Source: Balanoglossus misakiensis (lineage: Eukaryota > Animalia > Hemichordata). From it: a stretch of 64,000 nucleotides of DNA. Location of the stretch: positions 11,773,262 to 11,837,261 of the forward strand of contig CM082587.2 in assembly GCA_040954595.2 (NCBI GenBank). Direction: 5' to 3'. The translations under genes were made by a program, and so were the position numbers. Positions 15,501-46,042 of the stretch are shown here, in pieces (the stretch's first letter is position 1; each line of letters starts with the position of its first letter). Under the pieces are notes generated by a model. That model was not told the DNA's origin, made no database searches, and worked only from the letters and a program-made list of their open reading frames with translations.

Positions 15501-18155
15501 AATATATTTTATCTATTCTAGCCAAAGAGCTTGGCACCTGTTGAAATGAACTCATCTGCTGTGGGCCAGTTTATTGGTGGCAGTTGAGCTGAGGAGAGCA
15601 CCTTCCTTCCCGGCACGCCACCAAGTAAAGTTCCACGCCGCCCACCACAGATGCCAGCATTCATTCATGCGAGTGAGTGTAATTGCAAATTTGCCTATTC
15701 TAGATCTGTAATGGAAATGGAGAAAGTACCTTATATTTTCTGTAAAATAGACATTTAATTGGCAAGCCGTCCTGCATCAATTATTAATTGTGTACATGCA
15801 CTAAAGCGCCCTCACTGCTGGGTGTGTTGTATGGTCTTTAACCCTGTTTCAAATTAGAGTACTTTCTGCAATTTCAAGACAGATCTTACGTGCCATTGGA
15901 GAGCTCCATTGACTGGTCATTCATACTGTTTTCATTCATTCATTGCGGCATCAATATATTTTATCTATTCTAGCCAAAGAGCTTGGCACCTGTTGAAATG
16001 AACTCATCTGCTGTGGGCCAGTTTATTGGTGGCAGTTGAGCTGAGGAGAGCACCTTCCTTCCCGGCACGCCACCAAGTAAAGTTCCACGCCGCCCACCAC
16101 AGATGCCAGCATTCATTCATGCGAGTGAGTGTAATTGCAAATTTGCCTATTCTAGATCTGTAATGGAAATGGAGAAAGTACCTTATATTTTCTGTAAAAT
16201 AGACATTTAATTGGCAAGCCGTCCTGCATCAATTATGAATTGTGTACATGCACTAAAGCGCCCTCACTGCTGGGTGTGTTGTATGGTCTTTAACCCTGTT
16301 TCAAATTAGAGTACTTTCTGCAATTTCAAGACAGATCTTACGTGCCATTGGAGAGCTCCATTGACTGGTCATTCATACTGTTTTCATTCATTCATTGCGG
16401 CATCAATATATTTTATGTATTCTAGCCAAAGAGCTTGGCACCTGTTGAAATGAACTCATCTGCTGTGGGCCAGTTTATTGGTGGCAGTTGAGCTGAGGAG
16501 AGCACCTTCCTTCCCGGCACGCCACCAAGTAAAGTTCCACGCCGCCCACCACAGATGCCAGCATTCATTCATGCGAGTGAGTGTAATTGCAAATTTGCCT
16601 ATTCTAGATCTGTAATGGAAATGGAGAAAGTACCTTATATTTTCTGTAAAATAGACATTTAATTGGCAAGCCGTCCTGCATCAATTATTAATTGTGTACA
16701 TGCACTAAAGCGCCCTCACTGCTGGGTGTGTTGTATGGTCTTTAACCCTGTTTCAAATTAGAGTACTTTCTGCAATTTCAAGACAGATCTTACGTGCCAT
16801 TGGAGAGCTCCATTGACTGGTCATTCATACTGTTTTCATTCATTCATTGCGGCATCAATATATTTTATCTATTCTAGCCAAAGAGCTTGGCACCTGTTGA
16901 AATGAACTCATCTGCTGTGGGCCAGTTTATTGGTGGCAGTTGAGCTGAGGAGAGCACCTTCCTTCCCGGCACGCCACCAAGTAAAGTTCCACGCCGCCCA
17001 CCACAGATGCCAGCATTCATTCATGCGAGTGAGTGTAATTGCAAATTTGCCTATTCTAGAATTACGTGCCATTGGAGAGCTCCATTGACTGGTCATTCAT
17101 ACTGTTTTCATTCATTCATTGCGGCATCAATATATTTTATCTATTCTAGCCAAAGAGCTTGGCACCTGTTGAAATGAACTCATCTGCTGTGGGCCAGTTT
17201 ATTGGTGGCAGTTGAGCTGAGGAGAGCACCTTCCTTCCCGGCACGCCACCAAGTAAAGTTCCACGCCGCCCACCACAGATGCCAGCATTCATTCATGCGA
17301 GTGAGTGTAATTGCAAATTTGCCTATTCTAGATCTGTAATGGAAATGGAGAAAGTACCTTATATTTTCTGTAAAATAGACATTTAATTGGCAAGCCGTCC
17401 TGCATCAATTATGAATTGTGTACATGCACTAAAGCGCCCTCACTGCTGGGTGTGTTGTATGGTCTTTAACCCTGTTTCAAATTAGAGTACTTTCTGCAAT
17501 TTCAAGACAGATCTTACGTGCCATTGGAGAGCTCCATTGACTGGTCATTCATACTGTTTTCATTCATTCATTGCGGCATCAATATATTTTATCTATTCTA
17601 GCCAAAGAGCTTGGCACCTGTTGAAATGAACTCATCTGCTGTGGGCCAGTTTATTGGTGGCAGTTGAGCTGAGGAGAGCACCTTCCTTCCCGGCACGCCA
17701 CCAAGTAAAGTTCCACGCCGCCCACCACAGATGCCAGCATTCATTCATGCGAGTGAGTGTAATTGCAAATTTGCCTATTCTAGATCTGTAATGGAAATGG
17801 AGAAAGTACCTTATATTTTCTGTAAAATAGACATTTAATTGGCAAGCCGTCCTGCATCAATTATGAATTGTGTACATGCACTAAAGCGCCCTCACTGCTG
17901 GGTGTGTTGTATGGTCTTTAACCCTGTTTCAAATTAGAGTACTTTCTGCAATTTCAAGACAGATCTTACGTGCCATTGGAGAGCTCCATTGACTGGTCAT
18001 TCATACTGTTTTCATTCATTCATTGCGGCATCAATATATTTTATCTATTCTAGCCAAAGAGCTTGGCACCTGTTGAAATGAACTCATCTGCTGTGGGCCA
18101 GTTTATTGGTGGCAGTTGAGCTGAGGAGAGCACCTTCCTTCCCGGCACGCCACCA

Positions 18156-19959
18156 AGTAAAGTTCCACGTGCATTCCTGGCCCTGGTTTTATTTATGTTT
18201 ACAGACAATATTGCATTTTTGTACAAGTATTTTAATCAACTATAAATTTTGAATGTGTCATTTACCTGAACCGGTCATGTTGACCAGAATGATACATTTC
18301 TGCCTTCACTCACCCTATAAATATGTGATTGAGACATAGGTCATTTGCATAAGCTAACATACCAGAAAGTAAGCATATCTGTTGTTTTCCCTGTGTCACT
18401 GCCATCAAAGTAAAAATTAGACGTTGTGTAGAGCAAACTCCAATTTTTTGTTCTCAATAAACATGGATGAATTACATAGAATGTGTTTGTTGTTTACAGT
18501 CTTTAAATGACACATTAGATTATGCACTTTACAAAACGTTTCTGAGAAACAAGTGACTAACTAGTTTCTTTCCACTGTGGCCAACGTGGTTCACTGTTTG
18601 TGTCAGAATCTCTCTGTTTTGCAAGGATTTTGAAATCATAGTGGTGACATGCATAGTGAAAATCAGCTACTTTCAAATGTCCGTCATGTTCATGCTGTAA
18701 TTGAATTTTCAAAGCTGGGCTGGCGTGTTTTTTCTTATTTACATAAGTATCACACTTTATACATGTATCTTCATGGGGTTTTTTGAGTCCCGTATTTAGG
18801 TCCTCTCTCACAATTTTACGAAATATCGTATAACTGACAGTTGTTCTTCCCAGAAGAGATTGGTTGGTTATGAACTCTCGGTGTAACTGCGATATACTGT
18901 GGTCCGGCGCCAGGTACGGTTTAAATCGAGGATTCCTGCAGTAGTGAGATTCTACAATTCTGTGCCTGCGTACGTGTTCAGTGATATCAGTCAGCAAATT
19001 TGGATTGAGTTTCCGACGATGCCCTTTGTGTCGGCCCCTTGCATCTGGCATCAGACCAGTAAAGTTCCATGTGCATTCCTGGCCCTGGTTTTATTTATGT
19101 TTACAGACAATATTGCATTTTTGTACAAGTATTTTAATCAACTATAAATTTTGAATGTGTCATTTACCTGAACCGGTCATGTTGACCAGAATGATACATT
19201 TCTGCCTTCACTCACCCTATAAATATGTGATTGAGACATAGGTCATTTGCATAAGCTAACATACCAGAAAGTAAGCATATCTGTTGTTTTCCCTGTGTCA
19301 CTGCCATCAAAGTAAAAATTAGACGTTGTGTAGAGCAAACTCCAATTTTTTGTTCTCAATAAACATGGATGAATTACATAGAATGTGTTTGTTGTTTACA
19401 GTCTTTAAATGACACATTAGATTATGCACTTTACAAAACGTTTCTGAGAAACAAGTGACTAACTAGTTTCTTTCCACTGTGGCCAACGTGGTTCACTGTT
19501 TGTGTCAGAATCTCTCTGTTTTGCAAGGATTTTGAAATCATAGTGGTGACATGCATAGTGAAAATCAGCTACTTTCAAATGTCCGTCATGTTCATGCTGT
19601 AATTGAATTTTCAAAGCTGGGCTGGCGTGTTTTTTCTTATTTACATAAGTATCACACTTTATACATGTATCTTCATGGGGTTTTCTGAGTCCCGTATTTA
19701 GGTCCTCTCTCACAATTTTACGAAATATCGTATAACTGACAGTTGTTCTTCCCAGAAGAGATTGGTTGGTTATGAACTCTCGGTGTAACTGCGATATACT
19801 GTGGTCCGGCGCCAGGTACGGTTTAAATCGAGGATTCCTGCAGTAGTGAGATTCTACAATTCTGTGCCTGCGTACGTGTTCAGTGATATCAGTCAGCAAA
19901 TTTGGATTGAGTTTCCGACGATGCCCTTTGTGTCGGCCCCTTGCATCTGGCATCAGACC
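18156..19959. repeat. 902-bp direct tandem duplication (18156-19057 / 19058-19959)
   Basis: Same sequence at offset 902, with agt microhomology at the junction. Two substitutions noticed: c18168/t19070 and a K/R codon change. Confidence 0.95.
18557..19051 (-). pseudogene. 5'-truncated duplicate of the transposase N-half gene (164 aa, open from an internal Met)
   Basis: Identical to the last 164 aa of the 19459-20415 protein except one R/K change. Lies in the 902-bp duplication. Confidence 0.75.
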
Positions 19960-20415
19960 AGTTGAACAGTGCATCATTTTGCTTAGAACGGTTCTAGTCC
20001 GCCTCTCACTAATGCCAAATAATTTCAGGAATGCATTTTTGCAGACAGTAACCGTTTCACCGCCTTCATTCACCAGGTGATAACGAACCGATTTCTTGTG
20101 TGACTTCATCTGTATATCCATCAGTTTGTAGAGCATCAAGTTCTGTTCATTATACACGCGACCATCAAAATATTTTCTCGTGGTGCCTAAAACATGCGTA
20201 CTCCCAAGCTTCCGCAGACAATTCCCTTGAACGCAGGCGCATTCCAAGGAAAGACTGTCAATATCTGGAAAAGGGCGATTTTTCCTTGGTTTTTGTCTCG
20301 GACACGTCTTTTTAGAATTCCTACGTGGCTTGTTGGCTCGAGCTGACAGTTCGGTTCTGCGTTGCTGCCACACAGGAATGGGTTCCCACGCATAAGCAAC
20401 TCCCCGGCAGGCCAT
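19459..20415 (-). CDS. N-terminal half of Sola1-like transposase (DNA-binding/Zn region), 318 aa
   Basis: First ATG at 20415. Motifs CACVQGNC, VTVCKNAFLKLFGISERR, DARGRH, ESHYCR..YL, SYTIFRKIV..N.GL.KPHEDTCIKCD, H..HL..A are typical of the region preceding the catalytic core in this family. Confidence 0.8.
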   Translation of the reverse strand: MACRGVAYAWEPIPVWQQRRTELSARANKPRRNSKKTCPRQKPRKNRPFPDIDSLSLECACVQGNCLRKLGSTHVLGTTRKYFDGRVYNEQNLMLYKLMDIQMKSHKKSVRYHLVNEGGETVTVCKNAFLKLFGISERRTRTVLSKMMHCSTGLMPDARGRHKGHRRKLNPNLLTDITEHVRRHRIVESHYCRNPRFKPYLAPDHSISQLHREFITNQSLLGRTTVSYTIFRKIVREDLNTGLRKPHEDTCIKCDTYVNKKKHASPALKIQLQHEHDGHLKVADFHYACHHYDFKILAKQRDSDTNSEPRWPQWKETS

Positions 20416-20586
20416 GGTCACAGCTGAAGTATTTGTTCAAGTACTGACTGACTAAACGCGGCATGGAACAAACGAACGAACGAACGAACGACTTCACGTT
20501 CGGAAAAAAAATCGTTGCGAGCTGTTGGGTGCCTCTATAGTTGTCGGCAACCGTTCTTTTTTATTGCTAAACAATGCTGTCAGAGC
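20416..20586. promoter_or_regulatory. Putative 171-bp bidirectional promoter between the two transposase halves
   Basis: Head-to-head ATGs at 20415(-) and 20587(+). Contains short (ACTG)n and (AACG)5 repeats. Function inferred from position only. Confidence 0.5.
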
Positions 20587-21600
20587 ATGGAAGGTGTGGT
20601 GGAAAACGAACAGAGGTTTTGTACGACCAACGATTGGATGGTGCTACATATGGACTTCCACAAGTCATTGCCGGTTCCTAAACTCAGCTCTGAAGACTTT
20701 TACTTTAAATCGAAATTGCAAATGAAGCTCCTTGGAATTTACAACGGGACAACGGAAAAGATGCATTGTTATGTATGGACAGAGCTCGATAGCAGAAAGT
20801 CTCCCGATGAAGTTATTACCTGTCTAAATCACTTTTTTTATAACTCGGGTGTGACCAGCAGACATGCAGTTATTTACAGCGACAACTGCCGTGCCGAATT
20901 CAAGTGTGGGAAGTTAATGTTTTACTATGACTATCTGTTACGAAAGGGCGTGTTTCGACGAATTGACTATAAAACTCTTGTGGCTGGACACACGTACTCC
21001 ACCTGTGACCGAGTTTTTGCGTCCATTGAAAGGCATGCAAGTCGTTTCCAGAGTATAGAGACACCTCACGATTGGACATCTGTGATTCGAGGATCTTCTC
21101 TGAATGGGAACATTGGAGTTACGGAGATGACTCACAGAGACTTTTTCAATTATTCTGATTTCCTGAAAAATGAGTACGTTGTGCGTTATGCAGATACAAA
21201 CAATGTAACTTTTTACTACCAAGCCATGCACTATTTTAATTTTGGAGAAGGAGAAAGGCTTGATACCGACGGCAACCTCAGAACATTTAGTCATGCAGAT
21301 AAAGTTTGGGTGAGAACATCTCTAGATCCAAGCGAGACCCCGATTGTAGTCGACTTTAGAAAGAAGAAGCAGAACCGGCGTTTACAAGATTGTACGCTGA
21401 ACAAACTTTATCAGGAACGTCGACCACTGGCGAGCAAAGTTTGGCGGGATCTTCAGAGTTTAGCCAAAAATTACCTGTCTCCGGAGGCAATAGAATTTTA
21501 TAGGAATCTACCGCTTCAGGAGAGTAGTGGCACCTCTGCAGACCCGTACGCCTTTCATGATGATGACGACGACGATGATGATGATATGGGCGGTGGTTGA
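20587..21600 (+). CDS. Catalytic (RNase H-fold DDD) half of Sola1-like transposase, 337 aa, acidic tail
   Basis: MDFHKSLPVP...FYFKSKL...CYVWTE...EVITCL...YSDNC...KTLVAGHTYSTCDRVFASIE: three candidate catalytic Asp intact. First ATG at 20587. ATTAAA at 21701. Confidence 0.87.
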   Translation: MEGVVENEQRFCTTNDWMVLHMDFHKSLPVPKLSSEDFYFKSKLQMKLLGIYNGTTEKMHCYVWTELDSRKSPDEVITCLNHFFYNSGVTSRHAVIYSDNCRAEFKCGKLMFYYDYLLRKGVFRRIDYKTLVAGHTYSTCDRVFASIERHASRFQSIETPHDWTSVIRGSSLNGNIGVTEMTHRDFFNYSDFLKNEYVVRYADTNNVTFYYQAMHYFNFGEGERLDTDGNLRTFSHADKVWVRTSLDPSETPIVVDFRKKKQNRRLQDCTLNKLYQERRPLASKVWRDLQSLAKNYLSPEAIEFYRNLPLQESSGTSADPYAFHDDDDDDDDDMGGG

Positions 21601-21918
21601 ACAAACTGTCCTTTTCATGACGACAGTGATTTTGGATATTTGATGTGCGTGCACAGTTTATATGTAATATTTTCACACGAACGAGTTTTGACTGAATTTG
21701 ATTAAAGAATGTACTCGATAATTAACAAATGTGCTGAATCGTGGTTATTATGTTGTTAATTTTTGTTTGTTTGTTTGTTTGTTTGTAAACAATTTCCGTT
21801 CATTCAACTGGCTACAAAGTTGGATTTTTGTACTGGGAAGCGATAAACTCGCACATCAAAACCGGGGAGACTCGATCATTTTTCCCTGCAGGTAGCCTGA
21901 AAAGCACCCGGGCAGAGA

Positions 21919-21991
21919 TTACGTCATATATGGTCCACTTTAATACGAAATTATGCAAATGTGACATTTCACGGAAACGGCGTATATAAAA
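21919..21991 (+). promoter_or_regulatory. Pol II promoter-like cluster upstream of wHTH-SET gene
   Basis: CRE-like TTACGTCA 21919-21926, octamer ATGCAAAT 21953-21960, TATATAAAA 21983-21991, about 90 bp before ATG 22084. Confidence 0.55.
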
Positions 21992-22083
21992 GCGACCCTG
22001 GGCTATTGTTCGGAATGCGTCATCGACGAGAGAGTGACTGATAATTCTTCTACCTCGAGTCAACCATTCTGTATATACTGAAC

Positions 22084-23410
22084 ATGGCTAGCTGGCGCAG
22101 GAAGAGACAAGGCAATGTGCGGTCTGTAATCAACGAACGGCACCGCTCAGTTCAGTGTCCCTTTCTTCAAAAGTGGATCGGTGAGCAATTGGTATTTTCA
22201 GGTCGTTCAGAGGATGAAGTCCAGTCCAGTACTGTATTTGAGAGCTACAAATGTTGGGTTGAAAACTATTCGTCGGCGGACAATCAAGTAATGATTATGG
22301 TTACTAAAGCTCGATTTTTCAAGGTGAGAATGATCGCATTTTTCTTCCCCCCCCCCCTCCCTCCCCCAAGGGACTCGTTTTCTGTCTCTTTTAAACCTGT
22401 AACTTAACGAAAAGGAAGTTTTTCACATATCTCTTTGTTGACACTATAGCAATTTGGAGCGCGGATGCTTCAAGAGAATAGCGTTACCAAATCAAAGTCG
22501 GCCGGGGTTAATATTTATAGAGGTGTTCGTCTGAAAGCTGGTTCGCGAAGAATCTCAACGGGGAAACCTGAGCACAGTGTACTTCAGACCAGGGCAAGGG
22601 CATTTCTTGATGACGCCAGCGTGACCGTTCCGATCGAGGTAAGAATGGTGTTTTGTTTGGACTAGGACAATAGAACGTTGCAATGAGTGTGTCAATGGGT
22701 GTCCAAGTGCAAACGTGGTCGGCTTCTGTCCACAAATGCCATTAATTTTAGGCAGGATTTATAAAATTGTCAATGAAGAATACAAAAATGAAAAACAATA
22801 GTTAATAGCAAACGGGTAGGATTGCAAGGGCTTGTAAAACGGTACACACTGTACCAGGAAGTTTGCAACACTAATGAAGAATGTATATGATATATTTAGG
22901 TGAGAACTGTTCGCGATCGCCGGGACGCAGGACGGTGCGCGTTTTCGACGAGGGATCTTCAAGCCTGGAACGTCGTCTGCGAATACCGGGGCACGGTTAT
23001 TAGCGTTGAAGAAGCTAGTCGGCGTGATGAACTTTACAGGGCAGAGGGGAAACGACCACGCATGTTTCATCTCTACATTGGAAAGAGACACGTTGTGTGA
23101 GTGTATCACTTAGTCGAATATATGGTCATATATTGCAAAGCATCTGTCGAAATAGAAAACGTAATATTGTCTATATTTTCCTCATTAACGCAGCATTGAC
23201 GGATACGATGTCCCAGCCGGTGAAGAAAATTTAGCGGGCCTAATAAATCACAGTCAGCAGAACGCCAACTTGGTACCGGTTCGGATCGGAGAGCGCCTGG
23301 TTTTCTTTGCAACCAGGAATCTTTGTCAGGGAGTAGAGCTTTTGTATGATTACGGTGACGGGGGTGAAGAGGATTTCTTCAGTGGTTCTCAAACTTTTCC
23401 TGAAAATTAA
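22084..23410 (+). CDS. 4-exon gene: D5/RFX-like winged helix fused to SET8/PR-Set7(KMT5A)-like SET domain, ~280 aa
   Basis: Exons 22084-22323, 22450-22638, 22900-23096, 23194-23410 joined by GT-AG introns (phases 0, 0, 2) give one open frame. SET motifs AGRCAFSTRDL..VVCEYRG, IDG, LAGLINHS..N, FATRNL..GVELLYDYGD. N-terminus FLQKWI..VQSSTVFESYKCW..KARFFKQFG..NIYRGVRLK resembles a wHTH. Confidence 0.88.
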
Positions 23411-24319
23411 GGCATTAACACATCAACGCTTCGGGATGTCGTAACGGCGGCAAGGCGGGGGGGGGGGGGGGGGGGGCGTGAAAATGTTTGTATCAGGAAC
23501 AAAATTCCCGTGCAAATCACCTTGATCCGGGTGGGTGGACTATTCGCGACAAATGTTGGAAATCATACAAAGCATTTTACTTAATTAACCCATTTTTTTC
23601 ATTTATTTGTTTACAGTTTACAACGTCATAGAGAAGTTGAACTAGAGACTGGATCAGCGTGGGTGACACCATAGTACACCAATGTTTTCTTCAGTTTGAT
23701 TCAATTGTAATTTAAAACTGAGATTGCCTAACGCTTTCCCAGATTTTTTTAACCACTGAGAAACTGTGGGTTTTTTTCTGGGTTTTGGTGCGAGGTGATC
23801 TCAGTCAGTGGTGTTAATTTAATTAATCATTTTCTTTTCCTATTTACGTCGACTGAAATGTATTTTGATAGGTGATAGTCATACCATAAAAAAATCTTAC
23901 GGCGCGACTGCCAAAATGTACATTTATTTGTCCGTTCCAAGTTATTTTGTGTATGTGTGATGGGTGCCGGTGACTGTGCAGGGTTGATTTCCCTAGAGCG
24001 ACTGTTATATTCGTTTTCCAACGATGATGAATTTACATGTTATTTGCTTGGCATTTTGACGCAGAGACACTTCTGAAAACACAAACCTATTAATTATGCC
24101 ACGGGTGTAAATTGATCACATTAAAAGAGGCTTTAGACGTTTGCCGCGAGCTCCTGGTGGGCAGAATCTTGTCAGCCCAAATTTGACTATAAGTACATAG
24201 CCAATGATGTGACGCTCTCCCACATCCTTCGCCGCGCCTTTTCGCTGATTTACAGCATCTTGCGTAAACACTGTCATTTGATCTTGCTTGGCAGAAGTCA
24301 ACTTGCTCTATACTACATT

Positions 24320-24685
24320 ATGGCGGCCAAGCTCAACTGCATATCAGATAATGCCAAGGAGCGTTTGAGAGGCATCCTCGCCAGAAGGAGTCGCGTTTCC
24401 GGTGACTGTGTGCTCTGGACGGGTGCAGCTTGTCGAAACGGCTATGGCTCTATTACGTTCAGAGATGAGAACACTCTAACCGCCTATGTCCATCACATTG
24501 CACTCCTAATTAACGGAGTGCAATTGGTGGGCAGGCGGTTAGAGTGTTCTCATCTTTGCAACGAAAAGCTATGCATCCGCCCAGAGCACATTGTCCAGGA
24601 AACGCGACTCCTAAACATTTCACGAAAGACGTGCTTTAAATCCCCAAAAGGGGAGTGTCACCACGATCCCAGGTGCCTAAGGTGA
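24320..24685 (+). CDS. His-Me finger endonuclease (zinc-binding loop homing endonuclease, I-PpoI-like), 121 aa
   Basis: CVLWTGA..NGYGSI...YVHH...ECSHLCNEKLCIRPEHIVQET..LNISRKTC...CHHDPRC. First ATG at 24320. The stop overlaps a strong donor AAG|GTGAGT, so the 3' end may be spliced. Confidence 0.88.
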   Translation: MAAKLNCISDNAKERLRGILARRSRVSGDCVLWTGAACRNGYGSITFRDENTLTAYVHHIALLINGVQLVGRRLECSHLCNEKLCIRPEHIVQETRLLNISRKTCFKSPKGECHHDPRCLR

Positions 24686-25598
24686 GTAATCCTCTTCTCA
24701 TTTGATATGTATTGTGTGACCCTGCAGTTGAAACGCTTTCATCAATAATTTGCGGCGCGTGGGTAATCTCGGTGTTATTGACAATGCAGCCGGCCCAAAC
24801 ATTTTTAAATTAACACTGTTTCTGACTGTATTAACGAAATGTCCAATTTGCAAGTAGCCTATAGACAACCCTTTTGAATGAGTTTTGTCTCGTTGAGATT
24901 TTATACATAAGGAACAATCTAGATTTATTTTAGAAGACACTGTTCTTTTAAAACAGCTAGCATAATACAGCTAAATTTCGGAATTTCCGGACAATTTTCG
25001 GAATTCCTTTTAAATTTGAGAAATTTTTCATCAGATATAAGTGTTACTATTTATTGGACATGTTTTTATCATTGTTTACTTTTTAAGGTCATTCTCATCC
25101 CCCCCCCCCCCCCCAAAAAAAAGCCGCTTTAGGCTTCATGTTCAGTAAAAAATCTGGAAAGTTCAGCTGAATTTTACACTGATCACACATTTTTGGGAAG
25201 GTCTGGCGCAAAATAAAGGATGACAAATGTAAATCTAATGTCACATTTGTAAACCTCTAAGTATTGTACACTCATTCTATTAAGTATATGCAAATAGTAC
25301 GGATAATTTTTTCGGAATGTGGAATTCCGAAATTAGTTCGGAACGTGTTAGCAGTGAAGAGATCACCACTGAGGGTTGGAAGGCCTTGCCAGAAATTAAC
25401 GCGTAAAGTACGCCCTCACAGGCCATGTAAACAAGGTCAAATAAGGCCGTCTGGCAAACGAATGATTAATTCAACGCGCCATTTGAGCCGAGCTGAGTTG
25501 GTCTGAGTTGCGTATCACACAGACTTAGGCTGAATGTCAGTGGAGTAACCAGTCCGTTTTAGATTTACCAATGATGTGAATTTAATTTCTTCACCCAG

Positions 25599-26000
25599 AA
25601 AAACAGAACACAACTTGTCTGCAACATGATGCTGGAGGTGACACATGACAGAGAAGTGGATCCGCGTTGTCAACACAGATGCCAGCATTCAAAAGGGGAG
25701 TGCCACCTGCTAAAATCAACTCATCTGCTGTTGGCCCATTTTACCTGTGGCAACTGTTCAGAGGAGACAACGTTTATTCCGTGCAAGCCAACACGCAATG
25801 TTGGGGTCTACCTGTCAACACAGATGCAAGCATTCATGTGAGTGAGTATCAGGACTGACCTTGTTTTGCTGAATAATTCATAATGCCTATTTTAGAATTC
25901 TTAGAGGCATTTGGAGTTCATTGCCTGGTCAACCAAACTACACCCCTTAACAGCTGAAACAAAATGCGTATTGTGTTCATTCATTCATTGCTTCAATATA
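25599..26000 (+). repeat. Diverged copy of satellite module A inside the cassette
   Basis: Blocks acagatgccagcattca, aactcatctgctgt, agcattcatgtgagtgagt, tgcctattttagaattctta, ctggtca and ttcattcattcattgc occur in monomer order. Internal direct repeat tgtcaacacagatgc at 25668 and 25813. Confidence 0.85.
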
Positions 26001-26316
26001 TATAGGCAACATGAGTATCAAGTAGCACTATTTGTTTACGATTGTATTCATGAAAACTTCCCACTAACAATTCCACAGTTAATATTGAACACATTTATCC
26101 AACAAGGTCAAAAGAAAAAGGGAATCTTCTGGTTCCAAAATACGCCACAAATGTGGGTCAACATACAGTGAAATATTATGGTGCTCAAATATGCAACATA
26201 TCAAATCTGTCTCATCAAAGTCATGCTTTAAAAAAGAATTGAAAAGGTATTATTTATCCATTTGACTGCTGTATTTTCAGAAGGAAAACAAACTGAATTT
26301 GGTTTTTCATGTACAA

Positions 26317-44715: not shown

Positions 44716-46042
44716 ATGGCTAGCTGGCGCAGGAAGAGACAAGGCAATGTGCGGTCTGTAATCAACGAACGGCACCGCTCAGTTCAGTGTCCCTTTCTTC
44801 AAAAGTGGATCGGTGAGCAATTGGTATTTTCAGGTCGTTCAGAGGATGAAGTCCAGTCCAGTACTGTATTTGAGAGCTACAAATGTTGGGTTGAAAACTA
44901 TTCGTCGGCGGACAATCAAGTAATGATTATGGTTACTAAAGCTCGATTTTTCAAGGTGAGAATGATCGCATTTTTCTTCCCCCCCCCCCTCCCTCCCCCA
45001 AGGGACTCGTTTTCTGTCTCTTTTAAACCTGTAACTTAACGAAAAGGAAGTTTTTCACATATCTCTTTGTTGACACTATAGCAATTTGGAGCGCGGATGC
45101 TTCAAGAGAATAGCGTTACCAAATCAAAGTCGGCCGGGGTTAATATTTATAGAGGTGTTCGTCTGAAAGCTGGTTCGCGAAGAATCTCAACGGGGAAACC
45201 TGAGCACAGTGTACTTCAGACCAGGGCAAGGGCATTTCTTGATGACGCCAGCGTGACCGTTCCGATCGAGGTAAGAATGGTGTTTTGTTTGGACTAGGAC
45301 AATAGAACGTTGCAATGAGTGTGTCAATGGGTGTCCAAGTGCAAACGTGGTCGGCTTCTGTCCACAAATGCCATTAATTTTAGGCAGGATTTATAAAATT
45401 GTCAATGAAGAATACAAAAATGAAAAACAATAGTTAATAGCAAACGGGTAGGATTGCAAGGGCTTGTAAAACGGTACACACTGTACCAGGAAGTTTGCAA
45501 CACTAATGAAGAATGTATATGATATATTTAGGTGAGAACTGTTCGCGATCGCCGGGACGCAGGACGGTGCGCGTTTTCGACGAGGGATCTTCAAGCCTGG
45601 AACGTCGTCTGCGAATACCGGGGCACGGTTATTAGCGTTGAAGAAGCTAGTCGGCGTGATGAACTTTACAGGGCAGAGGGGAAACGACCACGCATGTTTC
45701 ATCTCTACATTGGAAAGAGACACGTTGTGTGAGTGTATCACTTAGTCGAATATATGGTCATATATTGCAAAGCATCTGTCGAAATAGAAAACGTAATATT
45801 GTCTATATTTTCCTCATTAACGCAGCATTGACGGATACGATGTCCCAGCCGGTGAAGAAAATTTAGCGGGCCTAATAAATCACAGTCAGCAGAACGCCAA
45901 CTTGGTACCGGTTCGGATCGGAGAGCGCCTGGTTTTCTTTGCAACCAGGAATCTTTGTCAGGGAGTAGAGCTTTTGTATGATTACGGTGACGGGGGTGAA
46001 GAGGATTTCTTCAGTGGTTCTCAAACTTTTCCTGAAAATTAA
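44716..46042 (+). CDS. 4-exon wHTH-SET gene, copy 2
   Basis: Exons 44716-44955, 45082-45270, 45532-45728, 45826-46042. Same splice sites and motifs as copy 1. Confidence 0.88.

Follow-up and report, generated by a model that had tools for sequence, protein, structure and literature searches.

A spliced gene joining a predicted winged helix to a SET8-derived domain, beside transposase-like and endonuclease genes in acorn worm satellite DNA

Introduction

KMT5A (SET8/PR-Set7; PDB 5TEG, 1ZKK, 7D1Z) is an H4K20 methyltransferase with an unstructured N-terminus. According to the available text of bioRxiv 10.1101/2022.01.30.478405, the equivalent of Arg295 in SET8 contacts SAM, its change to Gly stops activity in vitro, this being the inactive mutant in common use, and modelling indicated that this change disrupts SAH binding and hardly alters H4 peptide binding; the same text allows that the fly allele, Set8 R634G, might be hypomorphic rather than null. 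R295G is described as a SET8 mutant without methylase activity in the accessible part of PMC11258601, and the accessible part of PMC6579520 reports that the post-SET residue Trp390 stacks on SAM.

SET genes have been described as accessory cargo of DNA transposons in HarbingerS and in oomycete MuDR elements (PMC12730594, in the text available). Proto-Helentron-Pi features a 153-aa intronless Clr4-like ORF in which the cofactor sites are conserved (PMC4067079, likewise in the text available), and the accessible parts of both sources give precedent for anti-silencing proteins on transposons. Plant VANC, cited in PMC12730594, is a transposon-encoded protein that exerts sequence-specific control over the silencing of its own element; the available text of that source does not describe it as a SET protein. 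SETMAR (PMC6326780, available text) joins SET to a mobile-element DNA-binding domain, as the protein characterized here would; it is a host gene in which SET comes first and the mariner domain follows. KolobokP (PMC9587614) features a DDE-type gene together with an I-PpoI-like His-Me nuclease, tandem multimers and a repeat of ~450 bp, and the accessible part of its description mentions no SET gene. No transposon gene fusing a winged-helix (wHTH) domain to a SET8-type domain was found in the literature covered, a coverage that stops short of Repbase Reports, most subscription journals and supplements.

The window analysed here is the whole 64,000-nt stretch of contig CM082587.2 of Balanoglossus misakiensis (assembly GCA_040954595.2, positions 11,773,262 to 11,837,261, forward strand), and all coordinates below refer to it. 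A first-pass annotation had proposed that a spliced gene in this window fuses a winged helix to a SET8-like methyltransferase, and that the product is a DNA-targeted chromatin writer carried by a mobile element.

Gene structure and homologues

The gene and its candidate promoter motifs are located as follows.

21953..21960, plus strand: octamer motif ATGCAAAT, 5' of the wHTH-SET gene, a candidate promoter motif
21983..21990, plus strand: TATA box TATATAAA, ~100 bp 5' of the ATG
22084..22323, plus strand: exon 1, aa 1-80, the basic N-terminus and the first three quarters of the winged helix
22450..22638, plus strand: exon 2, aa 81-143, the end of the recognition helix, the beta wing (YRGVRLK) and the start of the SET8-type N-flanking segment
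22900..23096, plus strand: exon 3, aa 144-209, the N-half of SET with GRC for GRG, Tyr172 (=Y245) and Asp186 (=E259)
23194..23410, plus strand: exon 4, aa 209-280, with Gly224 (codon 23237-23239, the position of SET8 Arg295), NHS, ELLYDYGD, an acidic Phe-Phe tail and the stop

The ATG of exon 1 lies in an A(-3)/G(+4) context. The three introns of 126, 261 and 97 nt are all GT-AG, and the spliced coding sequence of 843 nt reads through 280 aa plus stop with no internal stop, placing GRC at residues 154-156, NHS at 227-229 and ELLYDY at 257-262. In mononucleotide shuffles, TATATAAA is expected by chance ~0.01 times and ATGCAAAT ~0.011 times per 200 bp; both motifs, which the first-pass annotation had placed upstream, were located at 21983 and 21953, respectively. 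Octamer motifs occur at 18343, 19245, 21953 and 25288, and three fall within 19060-26316 where 0.38 would be expected from the same kind of shuffles.

The sole full-length homologue found is XP_070545977.1, a RefSeq protein of 278 aa from the acorn worm Ptychodera flava (P. flava). The two proteins align over their full length with 176 of 280 residues identical (63%, E 6e-136) and only two gaps, each of a single residue and neither at an exon junction. When the open-frame GT-AG pairs tried for each intron were ranked against the P. flava protein, the proposed junctions scored best in every case (first of 23 for intron 1, of 6 for intron 2 and of 8 for intron 3). The earlier splice model, in which four exons give ~280 aa with NHS, ELLYDY and GRC, is matched end to end by the P. 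flava homologue, and comparison of the two proteins confirms a real and intact four-exon gene with well-supported predicted junctions.

Relatives are very sparse. When exon 1 was searched exhaustively with HMMER against 1.84 billion representatives, five matches were returned, XP_070545977.1 and four unnamed ORFs known as exon-1 fragments only, which are 32-37% identical to exon 1 and have similar start points. In all four distant ORFs the similarity stops at R-F-x-K; the next residue is Val, against Gln in the spliced proteins. A GT donor read as a codon gives Val, so these ORFs resemble first exons left unspliced, with an intron at the same place. Word-index searches, a method weak for absence, recovered XP_070545977.1 as one of 93 candidates with exon 4, nothing among 20 candidates with exon 1, and, with XP_070545977.1 as the query, itself alone among 334. 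Viral contigs held no relative of XP_070545977.1, exon 4, the neighbouring nuclease or the neighbouring 318-aa ORF described below, metagenome contigs held none of XP_070545977.1 or of the neighbouring DUF7869 catalytic half, and a phage scan found no relatives.

The N-terminal winged-helix domain

The N-terminal domain was modelled on residues 1-115 of XP_070545977.1 with a six-row family alignment from which D5 and RFX sequences were left out. The model has a pLDDT of ~90 over residues 31-110 and features the order helix-strand-helix-helix-beta-hairpin, with the hairpin as a beta wing. A structure search of 48,161 chains placed the RFX1 DNA-binding domain (DBD) first (Z 9.3, rmsd 2.1, 72 residues aligned), followed by nucleosome-bound RFX5 (Z 9.0), the phage P4 origin-binding domain (7.9) and African swine fever virus (ASFV) PrimPol (7.5), with the next row at 6.0. 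Foldseek returned viral primase-helicases down to E 5e-5, and against the PDB it gave RFX and PrimPol rows in the same order as the structure search, none of them below E 0.001. In the Atlas, exon 1 lies closest to clusters of Pox_D5 (0.97), sharing 197 of 256 features with them.

Sequence profiles of the N-terminus are less informative. Pfam Pox_D5 scores 13.5 bits against a cut-off of 21.4 (E 0.1) and in one of the six family members, no RFX family appears among the Pfam matches of the N-terminal alignment, and a PHROG primase C-terminus matches weakly (E 0.25). A sequence-profile search of the PDB with the same alignment gave weak unrelated rows only (best E 0.39), and the single-sequence fold of XP_070545977.1 has a pLDDT of 33. 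Pfam matches to NTR and TK fell below cut-off and were rejected.

The domain shares its predicted fold and topology (Z 7.5-9.3) with the RFX DBD (1DP7, 8ZJR), the origin-binding domain of phage P4 alpha (1KA8) and the winged helices of Pox_D5 and ASFV PrimPol. It is 12-20% identical to these domains and, unlike them, is joined to SET; neither the protein nor the surrounding gene block contains a primase or helicase. The proposal that the N-terminus resembles the C-terminal domain of D5 primase-helicases or RFX stands as a prediction, the modelled fold being nearest to the RFX/P4/D5 type of winged helix. The fold and the basic wing suggest that the domain may bind DNA. X-box-like sites number four with two mismatches in the locus against 10 expected by chance, and none lies in the satellite, a weak test as the winged helix may have another specificity; within that limit, the earlier idea that the protein marks the satellite finds no support.

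The SET domain

Exons 3 and 4 match Pfam SET with E values of 0.003 and 1.7e-7, and the Pfam SET match is above cut-off with E 6e-13. The closest solved relative is KMT5A, which fills the first 14 rows (best E 9e-10) and is found by profile search with E 7e-12. Among Atlas structure rows, residues 120-263 align to clusters named as SET8 (H4K20 methyltransferase) with a TM of ~0.45; a feature search of the Atlas using the entire protein yielded no usable match. The identification of the domain as SET8-like therefore holds, with KMT5A nearest in sequence, profile and Atlas structure comparisons.

Residues were mapped onto the 352-aa KMT5A by aligning residues 10-50 of exon 3 to 226-266 and residues 11-58 of exon 4 to 291-341. 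The SET-I helix (RRDELY versus KREALY), LINHS and ELLYDYGD resemble SET8, and the positions R228, Y245, R258, Y262, N298, H299, Y334, Y336 and D338 are kept, with N298-H299 corresponding to N227-H228, Y334 and Y336 to Y260 and Y262, and Y245 to Y172; the E259 equivalent is Asp in the window protein and Glu in P. flava. The 2005 SET8 structures are reported to place E259, D338, Y245 and Y334 on the substrate side and Y271 on the cofactor side; the lysine-channel tyrosines are among the residues kept.

In contrast to SET8, the window protein has a predicted folded winged helix at its N-terminus, and several cofactor-side residues differ. The Arg295 position is occupied by Gly in both the window protein (Gly224) and its P. 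flava homologue, and Gly229 is Cys in both species, which gives GRC for GRG. The strand C270-F275 (YMYYF in SET8) is changed in both species, and Tyr271 is absent in either register. The post-SET Trp is also absent: no Trp follows YDY in either species, and in place of PW there is an acidic C-terminal tail that carries a conserved Phe-Phe pair. This pair could replace the SAM-capping Trp. By its residues the window protein appears to be a SET8 derivative that falls outside SET8 at the cofactor positions. The Arg295 to Gly change was not mentioned in the first-pass annotation.

The SET region is better conserved between the two species than the winged helix (83 of 120 residues, 69%, versus 47 of 86, 55%), which argues that it is under constraint; the C-terminal tail is 76% identical (13 of 17). 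These values would also suit an active, rewired lysine methyltransferase on a transposon, one whose winged helix targets the element and whose SET domain has adapted to the missing Arg and Trp and methylates a lysine, either H4K20 or one elsewhere in histones or in other proteins. Such an enzyme is possible, though somewhat unlikely. It is favoured by the NH pair and the Y245, Y334 and Y336 equivalents kept in both species, by the Pfam match above cut-off and by active SET families, such as SUV4-20 and viral vSET, that apparently lack the Arg, although the available text of PMC3874154 does not establish this for SUV4-20. Transposons carrying SET genes whose cofactor sites are intact have been described (PMC4067079, available text). 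Against it, R295G, G229C and the loss of Y271 and of the post-SET Trp coincide in one protein, and R295G by itself stops SET8 in vitro (bioRxiv 10.1101/2022.01.30.478405, available text). The term chromatin writer used earlier is weakened by the same replacement of Arg295 by Gly in both species and by the accompanying changes at Gly229, Tyr271 and the post-SET Trp.

The gene block and its neighbours

The wHTH-SET gene lies in a block with three other genes.

18170..26316, no strand: non-satellite block of 8.1 kb with four genes, its ends being breakpoints inside satellite units
19459..20415, minus strand: 318-aa ORF apparently similar to the DNA-binding, N-terminal part of a transposase of the DUF7869 type, with a strong ATG, a stop and a downstream AATAAA
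20587..21600, plus strand: 337-aa DUF7869 (PF25273) protein, transposase-like catalytic half, Pfam E 1.4e-14
24320..24685, plus strand: His-Me (His-Cys box) endonuclease ORF, PF05551, Pfam E 6.7e-13, with a long inverted repeat in its middle 230 nt

The 318-aa ORF has no Pfam match and the DUF7869 protein no PDB match; the latter carries a candidate acidic triad, D23/D99/D141-E148, proposed from its sequence. The two genes are head-to-head and 171 bp apart, and the end of the N-half corresponds roughly to the start of the catalytic half. We take them to be the putative DNA-binding and catalytic halves of one Sola-like transposase. The available texts of PMC5751038 and PMC3845634 give no Sola motif. 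A standing two-gene arrangement fits better than a fresh inversion because both halves start in an A(-3)-ATG-G context of their own and the minus-strand gene has a stop and AATAAA. All four block genes start in this context, which 12 of the segment's 276 ATGs have. A tandem duplication of 902 bp (99.8%; 18156-19060 = 19058-19962) copies the 3' part of the minus-strand ORF.

The nuclease ORF contains a quasi-palindrome at 24385-24612 on the plus strand, repeated 22,632 bp downstream, which folds as an RNA hairpin of 99 pairs (-154.5 kcal/mol, z -18). None of 200 shuffles was as stable, the hairpin is the strongest of 66 windows across the block, and the plus strand forms 99 pairs versus 87 for the minus strand. 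The His-Cys motifs are retained despite the hairpin, which could act as a self-silencing hairpin RNA or form a cruciform. At the end of the ORF, a strong GT donor (AAG/GTGAGT) lies at 24683, and a simple filter gave one weak second-exon candidate at 26281.

The transposase-like gene lies 483 bp upstream of the wHTH-SET gene and the His-Me endonuclease ~900 bp downstream. No pair of terminal inverted repeats (TIRs) or target site duplication (TSD) was found bounding the 8.1-kb block, and no Rfam family or NCBIfam entry matched. From this neighbourhood alone, the wHTH-SET gene likely travels with the transposase-like and endonuclease genes as one mobile element. The proposal of a mobile-element carrier thus holds for the neighbours, which are mobile-element genes, and membership of the wHTH-SET gene follows from its position among them, no TIR or TSD having been found. 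Nothing supports a viral origin for the block, as no capsid, polymerase or helicase was present among the scanned ORFs.

Alternatively, wHTH-SET could be a host gene of acorn worms or of a wider animal group, a domesticated fusion of SETMAR-like origin that was caught by chance in a satellite duplication beside transposon genes. The single annotated P. flava match on a 29-Mb contig, the intron position conserved in four distant homologues, the conventional promoter and the missing element ends are compatible with this, however, the gene is tightly packed between the transposase-like gene and the endonuclease in a block with no host gene, the five matches in 1.84 billion representatives are a very sparse distribution, and winged helices of the D5/P4 type come mostly from mobile replicons. 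A host origin is thus improbable.

HarbingerS, MuDR and proto-Helentron-Pi (as far as the available texts describe them) carry a SET gene as transposon cargo; here a SET gene adjoins a transposase-like gene, with no element ends found. The window differs in its DUF7869 transposase-like gene, its animal host and its SET8-derived SET fused to a winged helix. Membership in HarbingerS was rejected since the transposase-like ORF matches DUF7869 only and no Harbinger-type transposase was found. The block shares with KolobokP a His-Me finger nuclease gene (PF05551) beside a candidate DDE-type gene, and its setting resembles KolobokP in tandem multimers and a repeat near 450 bp, but the C/DxxH motif that the accessible part of PMC9587614 places between the second D and E is absent from the window catalytic half, and the 452-bp unit of the window is a many-copy satellite with inverted arms that do not abut at the unit ends. 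KolobokP has single LTDRs with terminal TIRs and a TTAA TSD (same source), whereas the block ends inside satellite units and the arms are 129 and 267 nt apart. KolobokP membership was rejected on the C/DxxH motif and the LTDR structure, as given in that text.

Satellite organization and the 22.6-kb duplication

The window is mostly satellite of 452-bp and 272-275-bp units, which the 8.1-kb block interrupts twice. The second interruption carries another copy of the gene.

44716..46042, plus strand: second wHTH-SET copy, identical to the first and 22,632 bp downstream, part of a higher-order duplication

The two blocks differ by just two homopolymer indels, and at a lag of 22,632 bp all 11 two-kb windows across 18001-40000 match at 99.95-100%. 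The 22,632-bp higher-order repeat is either a very recent duplication or an assembly artefact. The 452-bp unit consists of a block A of 272-275 bp and a block B of ~180 bp with 28-nt inverted arms ending in AGATCT, as seen at 17062-18169. The satellite contains 122 A blocks and 80 B blocks, and 39 junctions without B fall into four sequence types (16, 12, 10 and 1); these junctions resemble excision footprints of a MITE-like B. Older copies of block A, 71-95% similar, are located inside the gene block at 25668-25847 and 25964-26001, and the block segment 25701-25847 is 71% like the satellite. Because these older copies sit inside the gene block, it is suggested that the satellite arose from the flank of the element.

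Amplification of this kind raises the question of a functionless cargo, in which a once-active transposon SET gene is drifting and has been carried along passively with the satellite. The changed cofactor residues, the rearranged block ends and the internal 902-bp duplication would suit such decay, and the two gene copies in the window, being identical, are uninformative on selection. The P. flava comparison speaks the other way: 37% aa divergence has accumulated, yet there is no stop, no frameshift and the splice sites are intact, and the same unusual residues (GRC and Gly at R295) are found in both species. Decay is accordingly very unlikely.

Proposed function

The reading we prefer, tentatively and at a little under even weight, is that wHTH-SET is an accessory gene of a DNA transposon in which the winged helix tethers a SET8-derived, weak or dead methyltransferase that binds the H4 tail and does not write H4K20me1. 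The protein is likely a chromatin-tethered weak or dead enzyme rather than a normal H4K20 writer because its natural Arg to Gly change is the disabling change of human SET8. The winged helix would bind the element's own DNA or nucleosomes, and the SET domain would hold the H4 tail and methylate it weakly or not at all. K20 would then be shielded from host SET8 and SUV4-20, so that heterochromatin and silencing on the element would be blunted locally. Occupancy of the H4 tail and shielding of K20 are suggested because Y245, E259 (as Asp or Glu), Y334, Y336 and D338 on the substrate side are retained, and on the cofactor side R295 has become Gly, G229 has become Cys, and Y271 and the post-SET Trp have been lost. 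True pseudo-enzymes often lack the Asn-His and YDY motifs. The Asn-His pair, both YDY tyrosines and the tail with Phe-Phe are kept in both species, and these residues count against a weak or dead enzyme, as do the active SET families that apparently lack the Arg and the possible hypomorphy of fly R634G. The preferred reading is further weakened by the missing TIRs and TSD, by the single full-length homologue and by the Pfam score of the winged helix below cut-off. VANC (cited in PMC12730594, available text) offers a functional analogy for the preferred reading; SETMAR and the inactive SET-24 are analogies only for the window protein.

A further reading extends this one to the whole block, as a new animal transposon lineage with a split two-subunit DUF7869 transposase, a His-Me nuclease whose own mRNA would fold into a long hairpin, and a SET8 pseudo-enzyme, tethered to DNA, that would protect the element's chromatin from H4K20 methylation. 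This combination is doubtful as a whole. If true, it would be an animal counterpart of VANC anti-silencing in plants, in which a viral-type winged helix was fused to a captured host writer that turned into a decoy.

Significance

Most of the known chromatin modifiers encoded by transposons come from plants, oomycetes and fungi, and the SET genes among them have been assumed to encode writers. The animal element described here appears to keep, constrained in two species, a SET8 derivative that is linked to a DNA-binding domain and carries naturally a mutation used in the laboratory as dead. If the enzyme is dead, it would be a testable, sequence-targeted decoy for the H4 tail and a natural case of the non-catalytic SET8 function that the fly R634G work left open. 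If it is active, it would represent a SET8 site rewired without Arg295 and a compact, self-targeting methyltransferase of 280 aa.
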